Below, piece by piece: positions 1-37,068 of a stretch of 64,000 nt of DNA (position 1 is the first letter of the stretch; each line of letters opens with the position of its first letter). A model generated the notes under the pieces. That model did not search any database. It was not told the DNA's origin and saw only the letters and a list, made by a program, of their open reading frames with translations. Where the stretch lies: assembly GCF_054482525.1 (NCBI RefSeq), contig NZ_CM137006.1, one strand, 5' to 3'. Made by a program: the position numbers and the translations under genes.

Positions 1-945
1 CACGTCCAGACGCCAGTGCAGCTTATTCTCCACGTGCCAGTGATTTCGGATCGCTGTGGCGAACTTTTCTGCGGTTAAATCAGCAGAACTGATATAATAT
101 CTGACCGTCATTTCTGGCTCTTTCTTTTGTTCTGCTATTATTGACCGAAAGGAGACTGCCACGCATAATTTCTTCAGTCCTTTCCATTCAAACGTGAAAT
201 CAATAAGTTCATCAGGGACATCGCAAACAATATGAAGACGGATTTCTTCTCTGCCGTGACTCTTTTCACTTATTTCGTAACTGTCATGCTCTGGATTATT
301 TAATTCTTTCAGCGGAAATTTTCCATCAAAGGCTTTATTTAGTCGTCCCTGATTTCCTTTTACAGCGAATAAATAATCACCGCCCTGTTTTTGCATCTTC
401 TCTGCAATATCTTTCTGGCAACCCATCGCATCAGTTGTGATGATTTTTCCTTTAATATCCAGCATCTTAAGAAGTTCAGGGATAGCTGTGATCTCATTGG
501 ATTTCTCATCCGTCCTGATCTGTCCGATAACCAGACTGTGCATTGTTGAGAACGCACTAATGACATGAATCGCTCCCTTGCGGCGACTCTTGTCATAAGA
601 ATGCCGGAGTGTTTTTCCATCAATTGCGATGACGTCTTTATCATCTGAAGTATGGCAATCTCGCATCCAGTTAATAAAGCACTCGTGAAATTTTGCAGGA
701 CTGATACAGGATACAACTCTGGCGATGGTATCGTGAACAGGAATACCATTTTCAAAATCACCGTATTGTTTTAAAAAATCGAGATGTGTTTCCCCAAAAT
801 CCTCTATATCTTCCCAACCTTCCGCACCCGAAATAACGGCACAAATAGTCAACAGTAGAATATCCGATAATTTATTTTCCACTTTCCAGCCTTGTCTGTA
901 ATCGGGGATAATAGAAATATGTTCCATCAATTTTTTAAGCTCCAT
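1..945 (-). CDS. ISAs1-family (H-repeat-associated, YhhI-like) transposase; C-terminal part lies beyond the window start
   Basis: Minus-strand translation from ATG at 943-945 reads [18 protein letters not shown]...[34 protein letters not shown]..., which I recognise as the E. coli H-rpt/ISAs1 transposase family. The frame stays open to position 1, so it is absent from the supplied ORF track. The 360..761 track ORF is a different frame. Confidence 0.8.
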
Positions 946-1051
946 TTTGTTCTCCTTAATTATGTAAGGAGTATTTGATCATGTATAAGCAATAAAAAAC
1001 AGCTTTAGGTAATGAGGAATATCTCAATTTTTAAACATAAAATGCGAATTA

Positions 1052-1183
1052 CTTAGTACAAAAAAGCAGCGTTACGTGATCTTTCCCTGGTCCCTGTCCC
1101 GGATTGTAGTACCGGTGCCAGTTGTAGTGCAGTTCGGATTCGTCGTCATACTGCTAGCCCGGATGGCGGAGCAGTTGCTCTAG
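1052..1183 (-). pseudogene. Short remnant of an Rhs core 3' end, next to the H-rpt element
   Basis: Minus-strand translation gives ...LLRHPG*QYDDESELHYNWHRYYNPGQGPGKDH..., which parallels the Rhs core end [26 protein letters not shown] seen in both rhs copies here. It contains an in-frame TAG and is bounded by stops. Coordinates approximate. Confidence 0.4.
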
Positions 1184-1225
1184 TCACTCAGAATATTGTA
1201 ATAGTGATAGAGTGCAGTGCCGGTT

Positions 1226-1624
1226 TCAATATCCTAACGCTGGTCTTTTGCCTGTATTAACTGATTTAGCTGGTTTGCTACATATTAATGCCTTCAGATT
1301 TTCCCTTTCCTTGTCTGTGATACTGTCGCAAACCCTACTAGCCCATTCTACTTCACTCTTCTCCAGGCATTCTATTTTCTTATTGCTCATTGTTCTAATG
1401 TTTGGTGTTGCATCTCCATTTAATAACATCCATGTTTCATTTTTCTTCATAAAACATCTTCCATTATGTTCAAAGATATTAGGTGTGAATATATTATCAG
1501 AATCCCATGTTACGACTTGCTCGAGGGCTATATTATCTTGATAGTCCATGCCAGCATTATAATAATCACAAGATATAATTATCATGGAAATAATTATCAC
1601 TAATATATTCCCAAGCATTTCCAT
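1226..1624 (-). CDS. Putative Rhs-associated immunity protein (132 aa, hydrophobic N-terminus with lipobox-like IISC)
   Basis: AT-rich ORF directly downstream of the second rhs copy. Its ATG abuts the stop of the preceding ORF (TAAATG). N-terminal hydrophobic segment MEMLGNILVIIISMIIISC. Position and composition are typical of rhsI genes. Confidence 0.45.
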   Translation of the reverse strand: MEMLGNILVIIISMIIISCDYYNAGMDYQDNIALEQVVTWDSDNIFTPNIFEHNGRCFMKKNETWMLLNGDATPNIRTMSNKKIECLEKSEVEWASRVCDSITDKERENLKALICSKPAKSVNTGKRPALGY

Positions 1625-1873
1625 TTACTTTACCTCTTGAAATTCAAATGGGAATCCAGTGAAAGGACCTTTAGGCATAATATATCTTTGATATCCATAA
1701 AGCTCACCGAGCACTTGTAGGCTTATAGGCGCATTTGTATTCATAGAGGGGTTGTTAAACCCGCACGCCTCAAAAATCATGTTCGTTCGGCTAAAACAAT
1801 TATTTAAAACAGGAAGAGGCCCGAGGTTAATAGTTTTTAGTTTTTTATTAAGGTCTATTGCCTTATTCATCAT
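1625..1873 (-). CDS. Hypothetical 82-aa protein, in the same frame as the upstream rhs stop; toxin tip fragment or small immunity/adaptor protein
   Basis: AT-rich ORF MMNKAIDLNKK... Only 11 sense codons (IIDTTDEEEQC) separate its start from the TGA at 1907-1909 that ends the rhs ORF, in the same frame. No motif recognised. Confidence 0.3.
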   Translation of the reverse strand: MMNKAIDLNKKLKTINLGPLPVLNNCFSRTNMIFEACGFNNPSMNTNAPISLQVLGELYGYQRYIMPKGPFTGFPFEFQEVK

Positions 1874-1906
1874 ACATTGTTCTTCTTCATCTGTTGTATC
1901 TATTAT

Positions 1907-35485: not shown

Positions 35486-35528
35486 TTTACTGTAATAACA
35501 TAATAAATTACTATTGCGGAGAGATATA

Positions 35529-36443
35529 ATGGCTGGTTTAAGGAATAATAACAACACACAGAATGCACAGTGGGCTGATTATGTGGGTGACATTCTTCGG
35601 GGGGCTCAACCGATAAACCAGCTAGTACCTCAGCACCCTTATCTTAACGACGTCCCACTCATTGATGAATTAAGGCGTCAGAACACTCATCATGTTATTC
35701 TCTTGACACTTGATGTTGCAAAAAAAATACTCAGCTCAATAACATCATTTGATTACATTCATTTTATCACTACACATCCTTCAGGTATAAAAGATACACT
35801 CGCTTGGTTAGTTAACGCGGGTAAATTAATGACTGAGTTTGATGGAAATGGGAAAATTATATTTAACTTTAATACCTTAAAGTATACAAAAGCAAGTTAC
35901 TTTGAAATACTTGGAGAGAAATATATAAAAATTACAACATCCAGCCCCTGGCTTTTAGAAAAGCTCGGTAAATATATTTTCTCTTCACGAGCGCCTCAAG
36001 TTCTGGAACTCGCTATTGGCTGGCGAGGAGTTTTATCTGAATCAATAAAAGGAGTTAAGTTCTGTATCTGGTTTTCAGTAGCCTGGAGAACCATAGAATT
36101 TATTATGAGTTCAGAGCGAGATCTGGTTAATTTTCTTGGTGATTTTTCAATGGATGTGGCCAAAGCAGTGATTGCAGGCGGTGTTGCAACTGCTATTGGA
36201 AGCCTGGCTTCTTTTGCCTGTCTTAGTTTTGGCCTTCCAGTAATTCTTGTAGGAGGAGCAATTTTACTTACAGGGATAGTGTGTACAGTTGTTTTAAATG
36301 AAATCGATGCTCAATACCATTTATCAGAAAAATTAAAAGATGCAATTAGAGATGGACTAAAACGGCAACAGGAACTTGATAAATGGAAAAGGGAAAACAT
36401 GACTCCATTTATGTATGTTCTTAACACTCCCCCCGTGATATGA
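35529..36443 (+). CDS. Putative Hcp-associated T6SS effector with C-terminal glycine-zipper membrane region, 304 aa
   Basis: AT-rich ORF directly after hcp. ATG 35529 preceded by GGAGAG; the track start 35514 is TTG. C-terminal hydrophobic, Gly/Ala-rich segment AVIAGGVATAIGSLASFACLSFGLPVILVGGAILLTGIV. No catalytic motif recognised. Confidence 0.45.
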   Translation: MAGLRNNNNTQNAQWADYVGDILRGAQPINQLVPQHPYLNDVPLIDELRRQNTHHVILLTLDVAKKILSSITSFDYIHFITTHPSGIKDTLAWLVNAGKLMTEFDGNGKIIFNFNTLKYTKASYFEILGEKYIKITTSSPWLLEKLGKYIFSSRAPQVLELAIGWRGVLSESIKGVKFCIWFSVAWRTIEFIMSSERDLVNFLGDFSMDVAKAVIAGGVATAIGSLASFACLSFGLPVILVGGAILLTGIVCTVVLNEIDAQYHLSEKLKDAIRDGLKRQQELDKWKRENMTPFMYVLNTPPVI

Positions 36444-36452
36444 GGATTAACT

Positions 36453-36920
36453 ATGCGTTTACATGTTAAATTGAAAGAGTTTTTTTCGATGTTTTTTATA
36501 GCCATATTATTTTTCCCTGCATTCAATGCTTCTTTATTTTTTACCGGAATTAAACCTCTATATTCAATAATAAAAGGCTCCACGGAAATATTTTATGATT
36601 GGAGAATGTTGATTCTATGCTTCGGTTTCATATCGTTTTCCTTGTTAAATATTCATGTAATTTTACTAACAATAATAAAATCATTCTTAATAAAAAAAAC
36701 AAAGGTAATCAATTTCGCCACAGACATAACAATACAGCTAACTCTTATATTTTTACTAATAGCTATCGTAATAGCACCTTTAATAGCTCCTTTTGTCACA
36801 GGATATGTCAATGCTAATTATCACCCCTGCGGTAATAACACGGGGATTTTCCCAGGAGCAATCTATATTAAAAATGGCATAAAATGTAATAATGAACATA
36901 TTTCTCGCAAGGAAGATTAA
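36453..36920 (+). CDS. ykfM: Small multi-pass inner-membrane protein, putative cognate immunity protein; probable ykfM orthologue
   Basis: AT-rich 155-aa ORF with about four hydrophobic helices, directly after the effector-like gene and next to yafT on the opposite strand. In K-12 ykfM (about 159 aa membrane protein) holds that position, recalled from memory. Confidence 0.5.
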   Translation: MRLHVKLKEFFSMFFIAILFFPAFNASLFFTGIKPLYSIIKGSTEIFYDWRMLILCFGFISFSLLNIHVILLTIIKSFLIKKTKVINFATDITIQLTLIFLLIAIVIAPLIAPFVTGYVNANYHPCGNNTGIFPGAIYIKNGIKCNNEHISRKED

Positions 36921-37033
36921 GCAGTTAAATAATTAAATATTCTAAAACAAACAGTTTTTAACGCCGGATTCCATGTCCTTTCTTGCACTGTCTTTGTCAG
37001 GAACAATTTCTTATGCAAAGAATTTTGTATTAT

Positions 37034-37057
37034 TGCCGCCAGAAATTCCTGGCGGCA
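37034..37057. terminator. Hairpin between convergent immunity-like gene and yafT
   Basis: 9-bp perfect stem TGCCGCCAG / CTGGCGGCA with 6-nt loop. Flanking T/A runs are weak. Confidence 0.3.
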
Positions 37058-37068
37058 GATATAATTTA

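Follow-up and report, generated by a model that had tools for sequence, protein, structure and literature searches.

Gene content of the island

The window, a 64,000-nucleotide stretch of contig NZ_CM137006.1 (assembly GCF_054482525.1), carries all 13 core genes of a type VI secretion system (T6SS) that is canonical (class i). Each of the genes tssA to tssM, including hcp and vgrG, gave a full-length NCBIfam equivalog match above the curated cut-off. An earlier note on this DNA had claimed a full core set in a vas-like order, and the open reading frames (ORFs) and NCBIfam matches bear out both the set and the order listed there. The core genes and the accessory genes among them are as follows.

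10708-12816, minus strand: vgrG (tssI), spike protein gene, intact (TIGR03361, 626 bits, positions 1-512 of 513)
13026-13544, minus strand: hcp (tssD), tube protein gene (TIGR03344, 207 bits)
13545-14240: AT-rich spacer (GC 0.33) separating the divergent hcp and tssB genes, presumably a control region
14241-19846, plus strand: sheath and baseplate genes, all full-length NCBIfam equivalogs, namely
14241-14741, plus strand: tssB
15051-16526, plus strand: tssC
16533-16946, plus strand: tssE
16950-18800, plus strand: tssF
18758-19846, plus strand: tssG
22497-34979, plus strand: block from tssJ to the VasL-domain gene, in which all tss genes are full-length NCBIfam equivalogs, namely
22497-23021, plus strand: tssJ
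23024-24355, plus strand: tssK
24360-25121, plus strand: tssL
25130-27913, plus strand: tssH (clpV)
27910-28653, plus strand: vasI, accessory gene
28658-30073, plus strand: tssA
30182-33616, plus strand: tssM
33627-34979, plus strand: VasL-domain gene, accessory

Published descriptions of the Escherichia coli T6SS-2 locus give the same gene order (tssBCEFG-tagH-tssJKLH-vasI-tssA-tssM-vasL), the same place next to aspV and likewise Rhs cargo. The island encodes a contractile injection machine. TssJ, TssL and TssM form the membrane complex; TssE, TssF, TssG and TssK with VgrG the baseplate and spike; Hcp the tube, TssB and TssC the sheath and TssA the cap, with ClpV recycling the sheath and TagH, VasI and the VasL-domain protein as predicted accessory products. 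Scanned for promoters and terminators, the hcp-tssB intergenic region gave no excess over the shuffled expectation. An Rfam scan of the window gave no match within the island, the only matches being rRNA, tRNA and StyR-44 of the rrn operon.

A further set of genes follows the VasL-domain gene.

35003-36920, plus strand: second hcp, the gene of a predicted membrane protein of 304 aa, and ykfM
35003-35485, plus strand: second hcp (TIGR03344)

A toxin module had been proposed on this side; NCBIfam, Pfam and homologue searches detected no toxin domain. The 304-aa protein and YkfM matched neither NCBIfam nor Pfam models, homologues of the 304-aa protein were unnamed hypotheticals only, and a literature search on ykfM and yafU returned unrelated papers only. 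In K-12, yafU is a remnant of the 304-aa protein gene. Genes that match in size and position occur in E. albertii. The second hcp, the 304-aa protein gene and ykfM are possibly an Hcp-linked cargo module.

Rhs cargo on the vgrG side

Downstream of vgrG lie two Rhs genes, each followed by a small ORF.

1226-1624, minus strand: 132-aa ORF, AT-rich (GC 0.34), candidate for the immunity gene to the Rhs2 tip (role assigned from position only)
1625-5855, minus strand: Rhs2, second Rhs gene, pseudogene (RHS_core; six-frame reading)
5932-6381, minus strand: 149-aa ORF, AT-rich (GC 0.34), candidate for the immunity gene to the Rhs1 tip (role assigned from position)
6394-10641, minus strand: Rhs1, main Rhs gene (rhsG-type, PAAR-like N-terminus) (RHS_core)

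The architecture is that of Rhs polymorphic toxins, with RHS_core and YD-repeat matches up to a DPIGL or DPLGL motif, an AT-rich variable tip and then the small ORF, and the reading frame is interrupted in both genes. The left-hand toxin modules of the earlier note thus turn out to be pseudogenes, broken by stops and a frameshift. Rhs1 differs by a single base from the intact copy in strain SCU-102 and has a nonsense codon (TGG to TGA) at 7096-7098, ahead of the toxin tip; it matches RHS_core positions 1-1186 of 1261 before the stop, and the frame continues beyond. Rhs2 carries a frameshift near 4284-4396 and in-frame stops at 3668-3670 and 1907-1909. Its matches to RHS_core are spread over three ORFs, which cover positions 1-521, 520-727 and 747-1261, the frame is carried on by an 82-aa ORF at 1625-1873, and its counterparts in relatives are annotated 'frameshifted; internal stop'.

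The Rhs1 N-terminus matches DUF6531 (E=4e-18); the PAAR motif match is weak (E=0.08), and our label PAAR-like for this region comes from the literature only. The AT-rich Rhs1 tip (6394-6880) carries a HEFAH motif. Its sole Pfam match, to Peptidase_M91, is weak (E=0.16), and we claim no toxin activity for it. The Rhs2 tip gave no Pfam match and the 132-aa and 149-aa ORFs no NCBIfam match. The vgrG-side cargo comprises two Rhs toxins with variable tips, each with a putative immunity gene behind it.

Interruption of tagH by IS421

The FHA-domain gene between tssG and tssJ is split by an insertion sequence.

19871-22500, plus strand: tagH, FHA-domain accessory gene, interrupted (5' part 19871-20211, 3' part 21549-22500; TIGR03354)
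20212-21548, transposase gene on the minus strand: IS421 (IS4 family), 1337 bp, with 22-nt terminal inverted repeats and a 12-bp target duplication

The TIGR03354 match is divided between two ORFs, with positions 1-106 on one and 108-420 on the other, and junction alignment places the copies of the target duplication, GGGAGATATCCC, at 20200-20211 and 21549-21560. The transposase is of the DDE type (NF033592, 133 bits), and the element is 99.4-99.9% identical to annotated IS421 copies among the matches listed. It is oriented against the operon and lies upstream of tssJ through vasL. Uninterrupted, tagH encodes 426 aa in SCU-102, which also has Rhs1 intact; strain PCN033, 100% identical to the window over yafT-dnaQ, does not have the IS421 junction. 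Among 5,426 complete genomes, only 7 have the same junction; they come from different hosts, and the one carrier that was examined, NZ_CP178659, has intact genes downstream of IS421. The earlier note had listed the FHA gene in its place and called the island complete. Here tagH is in two pieces with IS421 between them, both left-hand Rhs genes are broken, and the locus does not have the intact FHA accessory gene of a functional T6SS-2.

Boundaries of the island

The ends of the variable segment are marked by the following features.

1-945, minus strand: ISAs1-family (H-repeat) transposase gene, left end of the island (from sequence; annotated in SCU-102)
37069-37854, minus strand: yafT, lipoprotein gene, an island gene and not conserved backbone
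38185-38261, minus strand: aspV, tRNA-Asp, whose 3' end is the right boundary

The segment extends from the aspV 3' end (38184) as far as the stop codon of yafV, some 385 bp to the left of window position 1, and the last 192 nt of the ISAs1-family transposase gene lie outside the window, adjoining yafV. This left junction was read from SCU-102, which is 99.8% identical over the left arm. In 757 of the 5,426 complete genomes the site is empty, with yafV adjoining aspV and no yafT, and homology to these genomes breaks exactly at the aspV 3' end. Bounded by a tRNA 3' end and missing from some strains, the segment is a tRNA-associated island. No integrase gene was found among its ORFs or annotations, and alignment of the two island ends, confined to the junctions, revealed no repeat of the tRNA 3' end.

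It had been proposed that the island spans 1-37060 and starts immediately after yafT instead of at the aspV 3' end. It reaches 38184, and yafT belongs to it: the gene is missing from all 757 empty sites and its GC content (0.41) is island-like. Moreover, when the window is compared with B2 strains, YafT shows 87% identity while DnaQ, RnhA and YafS show 99.6-100%, identities that point toward yafT tracking the T6SS genes rather than dnaQ and rnhA. Of 19 informative related clusters (from Citrobacter, Pseudocitrobacter, Phytobacter, Trabulsiella, Superficieibacter, Lelliottia and E. whittamii), 14 have a yafT homologue oriented convergently with vasL-hcp, whatever the neighbouring tRNA, and the same holds for E. 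albertii and Salmonella enterica. Such clusters in other genera lie beside tRNA-Phe, tRNA-Ser or no tRNA.

Alignment to K-12 had been suggested as a reference. K-12 is not an empty site but a deletion derivative, with about 36 kb missing and an ISAs1 remnant, yafF, joined to the remnant yafU; these scars are common to 371 genomes. K-12 therefore misleads as a boundary reference at aspV.

Subclass and relatives

Vibrio cholerae is the usual exemplar of subclass i1. Among solved structures, the best match of TssC is V. cholerae VipB (824 bits, 74.4% identity), ahead of those from M. xanthus (663 bits), P. aeruginosa (382 bits) and Francisella (288 bits), whereas TssM (43 bits) and TssK (135 bits) are distant from the structures of EAEC Sci-1. 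Together with the literature, these matches support the V. cholerae-like character proposed earlier. The aspV-linked cluster of E. coli has been classed as T6SS-2, that is, subclass i1 (PMC12282107, PMC5422975, PMC10711316), and best-hit ranking with this literature, rather than a tree, assigns the window's system to it. Published accounts of the locus include a T6SS-2 with rhsG and FHA in ST410 (PMC10711316), a 37-kb aspV island with an H-NS-repressed cluster in EHEC (PMC5363993) and the aspV cluster of EAEC 042 (PMC2808357).

The window agrees with E. coli T6SS-2 examples (EHEC EDL933 z0243-z0275, EAEC 042 Ec042-0210-0226, ST410-A with rhsG and MAEC ECC-1470 T6SS/1) in site, gene order, the FHA, VasI, VasL-domain and second hcp genes, and VgrG-Rhs cargo. 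It is 95-98% identical in nucleotide sequence to many genomes, and the differences are confined to its own set of Rhs tips and to strain-level lesions, namely tagH::IS421 and the nonsense codon in Rhs1. We are highly confident that positions 1-38184 of the window, with the 385 bp or so to their left, are the E. coli T6SS-2 island (subclass i1) at the variable site between yafV and the aspV 3' end, a confidence that extends to the explanation as a whole: island identity, encoded machine and probable impairment.

The likeness to the V. cholerae locus VCA0107-VCA0123 (gene order from PMC3166118) holds for the order from vipA/tssB to clpV, followed by vasI, a tssA-type gene, vasK/tssM and an ImpA-N/VasL gene. 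It is incomplete in that vasH, the sigma-54 activator gene between clpV and vasI in V. cholerae (PMC3166118), does not occur in the island: the end of clpV (27913) overlaps the start of vasI (27910) by 4 bp and so leaves no place for it there. VCA0122 is also missing, and the window has an extra hcp after vasL and Rhs cargo. Its hcp and vgrG are divergent and upstream, whereas in V. cholerae hcp-1/2 and vgrG-1/2 lie outside the locus and vgrG-3 at the end of the locus listing. EAEC Sci-1 (T6SS-1, subclass i2) is also a canonical 13-gene T6SS, but its similarity is remote and its locus and gene order are different.

A second form of i1 island occupies the same site in 548 of the 5,426 genomes. 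This B2-type island (for example in MS21199, and reported for ST131 and other B2 lineages) has the same aspV site, core order and terminal yafT. It differs in carrying VgrG-DUF4123-PAAR cargo instead of Rhs and in having no module of 304-aa protein gene and ykfM, and its core proteins are mostly 46-77% identical to those of the window.

Composition and history of the locus

The composition of the island is mosaic, as had been proposed. GC content is 0.52-0.64 from tssB to vasL (mean 0.56) and 0.63 in the Rhs cores, and falls to 0.34-0.37 in the Rhs C-terminal tips and putative immunity genes and to 0.30-0.41 in the second hcp, the 304-aa protein gene, ykfM and yafT; flanking core genes have 0.507. 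Separate acquisition of the cargo, also suggested earlier, is supported by cargo that varies independently of the apparatus, B2 strains having VgrG-DUF4123-PAAR at the same site. The window-type locus is found in 37% of complete genomes (2,019 of 5,426 hold at least 80% of its 24.9-kb core region).

The position at a tRNA gene could suggest a recent, integrase-driven mobile element inserted at aspV after a backbone yafT. PMC4232414 places the island between yafT and the next core gene, K-12 retains yafT without a T6SS, and related clusters of other genera lie beside tRNA-Asp, tRNA-Phe or tRNA-Ser. We nevertheless give such an origin very little credence: no integrase gene was seen among the ORFs or annotations and no tRNA 3' end repeat in the alignment of the two island ends, yafF and yafU in K-12 are deletion scars, and yafT is not in the empty-site genomes and accompanies related clusters in other genera. 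Within Escherichia the locus is probably old, because E. albertii, which has the same arrangement, and E. whittamii carry a cluster at the same site; this too speaks against a recent arrival. The earlier note's proposal of acquisition had been set against an ancestral and universally conserved locus; the locus is probably old yet far from universal. Strictly vertical descent in E. coli, with all strain differences arising by loss, accords with the occupied site in these two species, with the common deletion derivatives and with the presence of the locus in all phylogroups (PMC12282107). It is nonetheless quite unlikely, given two forms at the site with different cargo and amino-acid identities of 55% for TssB, 46% for TssE, 59% for TssF and 77% for TssC, beside 89-91% for TssL, ClpV and VasI and 97.6-100% for flanking genes. 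Since the two forms diverge far more than their flanks, the pattern indicates replacement and internal recombination. The two i1 forms, at one tRNA site in one species, are about as divergent from each other as either is from Vibrio, a divergence that may merit a brief follow-up.

Functional state of the system

The 13 core genes are intact, and the system is probably impaired in the window's strain, as judged from the IS421 insertion in tagH, the Rhs1 nonsense codon and the Rhs2 frameshift and stops. In V. cholerae, Hcp secretion, virulence toward amoebae and the killing of bacteria all depend on the FHA gene VCA0112 (PMC3166118 Table 1), and an equivalent role for TagH here would be an analogy with V. 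cholerae, not a finding made in E. coli T6SS-2. The cluster has no genes for a PpkA/PppA kinase-phosphatase pair, and TagH may therefore act differently. The EAEC 042 cluster likewise has no kinase or phosphatase partner for its FHA protein (PMC2808357). That feature, the 13 full-length core genes, and the persistence of the tagH::IS421 junction in seven genomes, with intact downstream genes in NZ_CP178659, would fit a system that still functions, with TagH dispensable or regulatory, transcription passing through or starting out of IS421, and effectors supplied from elsewhere or by genes linked to the second hcp. Indeed, a polar effect of IS421 on downstream genes is not certain, because insertion sequences can supply outward transcription, and the machine could still be armed by other vgrG, rhs or effector loci lying elsewhere in the genome, beyond the window. 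We think continued function rather unlikely, since the V. cholerae orthologue is essential, the transposase gene of IS421 runs antisense to the operon, neither Rhs effector gene of the cluster is whole and E. coli strains commonly show decay of this locus (PMC10711316, PMC5422975).

Of the T6SS loci in E. coli this one is the most widespread, and publications already cover its architecture, its subclass, its Rhs cargo, its silencing by H-NS and its frequent decay. The significance of the probably impaired system described here is mainly corrective and concerns completeness scoring and the K-12 boundary reference. A count of the 13 core genes alone would rate the locus complete and miss two dead effector genes as well as IS421 in tagH, a gene whose counterpart is essential in the relative studied most closely related to this system.

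YafT as a putative accessory lipoprotein

Usually treated as a marker of the backbone edge, yafT might instead encode an accessory lipoprotein conserved in i1-type T6SS clusters, or in envelope-spanning secretion machines generally, a suggestion that we make tentatively and hold to be rather doubtful. YafT gave no match in a Pfam scan. Its structural model is of modest confidence (pLDDT 62.9), and Foldseek matches had low TM-scores (0.2-0.55). As a lead only, the model weakly resembles LptE/PelC/FlgT/CsgG-like outer-membrane lipoproteins. In E. fergusonii a yafT homologue lies 3' of a type II secretion operon. The linkage of yafT to T6SS clusters across genera may merit a short follow-up.

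The T6SS gene set and its lesions

The locus is the E. coli T6SS-2 (subclass i1) island, which was known before, and its architecture holds nothing new relative to published T6SS-2 islands. All 13 core T6SS genes gave full-length, above-threshold NCBIfam matches, and NCBIfam also detects vasI, a second hcp gene (hcp2) and a VasL-domain protein, the last with an additional match to the TssA N-terminal region. The plus-strand order is tssB, tssC, tssE, tssF, tssG, tagH, tssJ, tssK, tssL, tssH, vasI, tssA, tssM, vasL, hcp2, as an earlier note on this DNA had listed it; on the minus strand, divergent from tssB onward, are hcp, vgrG and the Rhs genes. 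In the V. cholerae VCA0107–VCA0123 cluster vasH stands between clpV and vasI, whereas here clpV and vasI overlap by 4 bp; VCA0122 is missing from the window locus, and hcp and vgrG occupy different positions (PMC3166118). The gap between tssB and tssC is about 310 bp (14742–15050), where relatives are annotated with a 68-aa hypothetical ORF; this spacing is only 22 bp in the B2-type cluster.

The earlier description of the island as complete is restricted to the 13 core genes because of lesions in tagH and in both Rhs genes. tagH consists of two ORFs, matching TIGR03354 positions 1–106 and 108–420, which are separated by an insertion sequence:

20212–21548, 1337 bp, IS421 copy between the two tagH ORFs

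This copy is bordered by terminal inverted repeats of 22 nt and by a 12-bp target duplication, GGGAGATATCCC; its transposase gene is antisense to the T6SS operon. tagH is an uninterrupted 426-aa gene in SCU-102, a near neighbour of the left arm, and the tagH::IS421 junction is common to only 7 of 5,426 complete genomes. V. cholerae depends on its FHA gene VCA0112 to secrete Hcp, to be virulent towards amoebae and to kill E. coli (PMC3166118). As judged from sequence, the T6SS-2 island of the window is probably in an impaired state. Several poultry and APEC genomes match tagH and then the IS end for its first 22 nt only (window 20090–20233) before diverging; this could mean that the IS was rearranged, or that another IS4-family element inserted into the same palindromic target, GGGAGATATCCC.

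Rhs cargo and flanking modules

The main Rhs gene covers RHS_core positions 1–1186 of 1261 and then meets a TGA at 7096–7098, beyond which the frame stays open for 233 more codons into an AT-rich tip with a HEFAH motif. SCU-102 has TGG at the corresponding codon and an intact 1417-aa protein. The second Rhs gene, annotated as a pseudogene in relatives, is disrupted by a frameshift and in-frame stops. In its tip (1625–2075) the frame runs across the stop at 1907–1909 into an 82-aa ORF that is annotated separately in relatives; either the two are parts of a single, split toxin domain, or the tip is short and a separate gene comes after it, and the region has no Pfam match on either reading. SCU-102 itself has an internal stop in vgrG (28714–30822 of its stretch), though tagH and the main Rhs gene are intact; strains of the lineage therefore broke different parts of the locus.

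Toxin modules had been proposed on both sides of the island. The left one has a genuine VgrG–Rhs–immunity layout but is degenerate, and no toxin domain was detected in the right one. The right flank comprises hcp2, ykfM and, between them, a gene for a 304-aa protein whose C-terminal part has hydrophobic helices; neither the 304-aa protein nor ykfM has an NCBIfam or Pfam match, and their homologues are unnamed. The position of the 304-aa gene and ykfM module is taken in Salmonella enterica by a gene between hcp and yafT (9844–10419 in L029/L030) with an AcrVA2-like Pfam match, PF26125.

The mosaic composition described earlier is borne out by per-gene GC. Apparatus genes lie at 0.52–0.64 and Rhs cores at 0.63, the Rhs tips and small downstream ORFs at 0.34–0.37, hcp2, the 304-aa gene and ykfM at 0.30–0.39, and yafT at 0.41, against 0.507 for the flanking backbone. 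A GC-rich core with an AT-rich tip is a long-known property of Rhs elements.

Boundaries of the island

Two genes stand at the right-hand end:

38185–38261, minus strand, aspV
37069–37854, minus strand, yafT

Strains 05-3629 and AREA_494 have yafV, a 98-bp spacer and aspV, without yafT or any island DNA, and this empty yafV–aspV junction occurs in 757 of 5,426 genomes. In the alignment with the empty site, similarity to the window is lost precisely at the 3' end of the tRNA on one side and at the stop region of yafV on the other. In SCU-102 an ISAs1-family transposase gene abuts yafV, and window position 1 falls 192 nt into it. In K-12, the ISAs1 remnant yafF (window 1 to about 90) is fused directly to yafU, which corresponds to the 3' portion of the 304-aa gene, the joint lying at window about 36087. 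By this comparison the K-12 arrangement is a deletion of ~36 kb, its junction common to 371 genomes, and yafT, ykfM and yafU are island remnants. An island start immediately after yafT, as first proposed and as drawn in some published descriptions (PMC4232414), is therefore incorrect: yafT is missing at the empty site and so lies inside the island.

YafT is a lipoprotein with an LAGC lipobox and many invariant residues across 15 homologues; its family is PF25851 in a newer Pfam release. An AlphaFold model built from the homologue alignment (pLDDT 62.9) gave weak Foldseek matches (TM 0.2–0.55) to LptE-, PelC-, FlgT- and CsgG-like outer-membrane lipoproteins. The likeness of this predicted fold to outer-membrane lipoproteins, together with the secretion-locus neighbourhood, may serve as a lead.

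Relatives and history of the locus

With the VasL protein as query, a scan across GTDB gave 20 related loci, 19 of which reach back far enough to be informative, in Citrobacter, Pseudocitrobacter, Phytobacter, Atlantibacter, Trabulsiella, Superficieibacter, Yokenella, Lelliottia, Enterobacter and E. whittamii. The block tssL–tssH–vasI–tssA–tssM–vasL–hcp is kept in 19/19, with no space for vasH, and a convergent yafT homologue lies downstream in 14 of the 19. The loci adjoin tRNA-Asp, tRNA-Phe or tRNA-Ser, or no tRNA within the stretch fetched; the cluster sits at aspV–dnaQ in E. whittamii and Pseudocitrobacter, and in E. albertii the arrangement at that site is the same, with genes of like size standing where the 304-aa and ykfM genes are. 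Homologues of yafT (47–89% identity) are convergent to vasL–hcp in many Enterobacteriaceae irrespective of the adjoining tRNA. Salmonella enterica again has yafT convergent to Hcp–VasL–TssM; the E. fergusonii homologue instead lies 3' of a gsp type II secretion operon.

E. coli carries two forms at aspV, the window type in 2,019 genomes and the B2 type in 548. Most core proteins are 46–77% identical between them (TssC 76.8%, TssB 55%, TssE 46%), TssL, ClpV and VasI are 89–91% identical, and flanking genes 97.6–100%. The more similar tssL–clpV–vasI block suggests, at the level of sequence, replacement with internal recombination. Taken together, the data on relatives and on the two forms fit an aspV locus that is old, recombines and is often lost; they fit neither a recent insertion nor simple vertical descent. 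The two i1 forms (window 14241–34979 versus the B2-type stretch L004, 8000–27100) diverge almost as much from each other as from V. cholerae, window TssC being 76.8% identical to the B2 form and 74.4% to V. cholerae.

Published islands and nearest genomes

In EHEC EDL933 the 37-kb island linked to aspV works once H-NS is removed (PMC5363993), and the third T6SS of EAEC 042 is located at the aspV site (PMC2808357). The ST410-A T6SS-2 locus, with rhsG and an FHA gene, has been deleted from the MDR clade (PMC10711316). T6SS/1 of ECC-1470, i1 and highly variable, is the same system as the window locus (PMC5422975), and a survey of 131,610 genomes treats T6SS2 and subclass i1 as one and reports it from all phylogroups (PMC12282107).

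From right to left the window, a piece of E. coli chromosome, reads rrnH, aspU, dkgB, yafC, yafD, mltD, gloB, yafS, rnhA, dnaQ, aspV, yafT and the T6SS locus. No complete genome matches it end to end; of the nearest ones, SCU-102 is 99.8% identical over 1–13000, NZ_CP178659 98.2% over 13000–37900 with the IS insertion in common, and PCN033 100% over 36950–38950. A StyR-44 Rfam match at 49660–49770, in the 16S–23S region of the rrnH operon, is ordinary in enterobacterial rrn operons.
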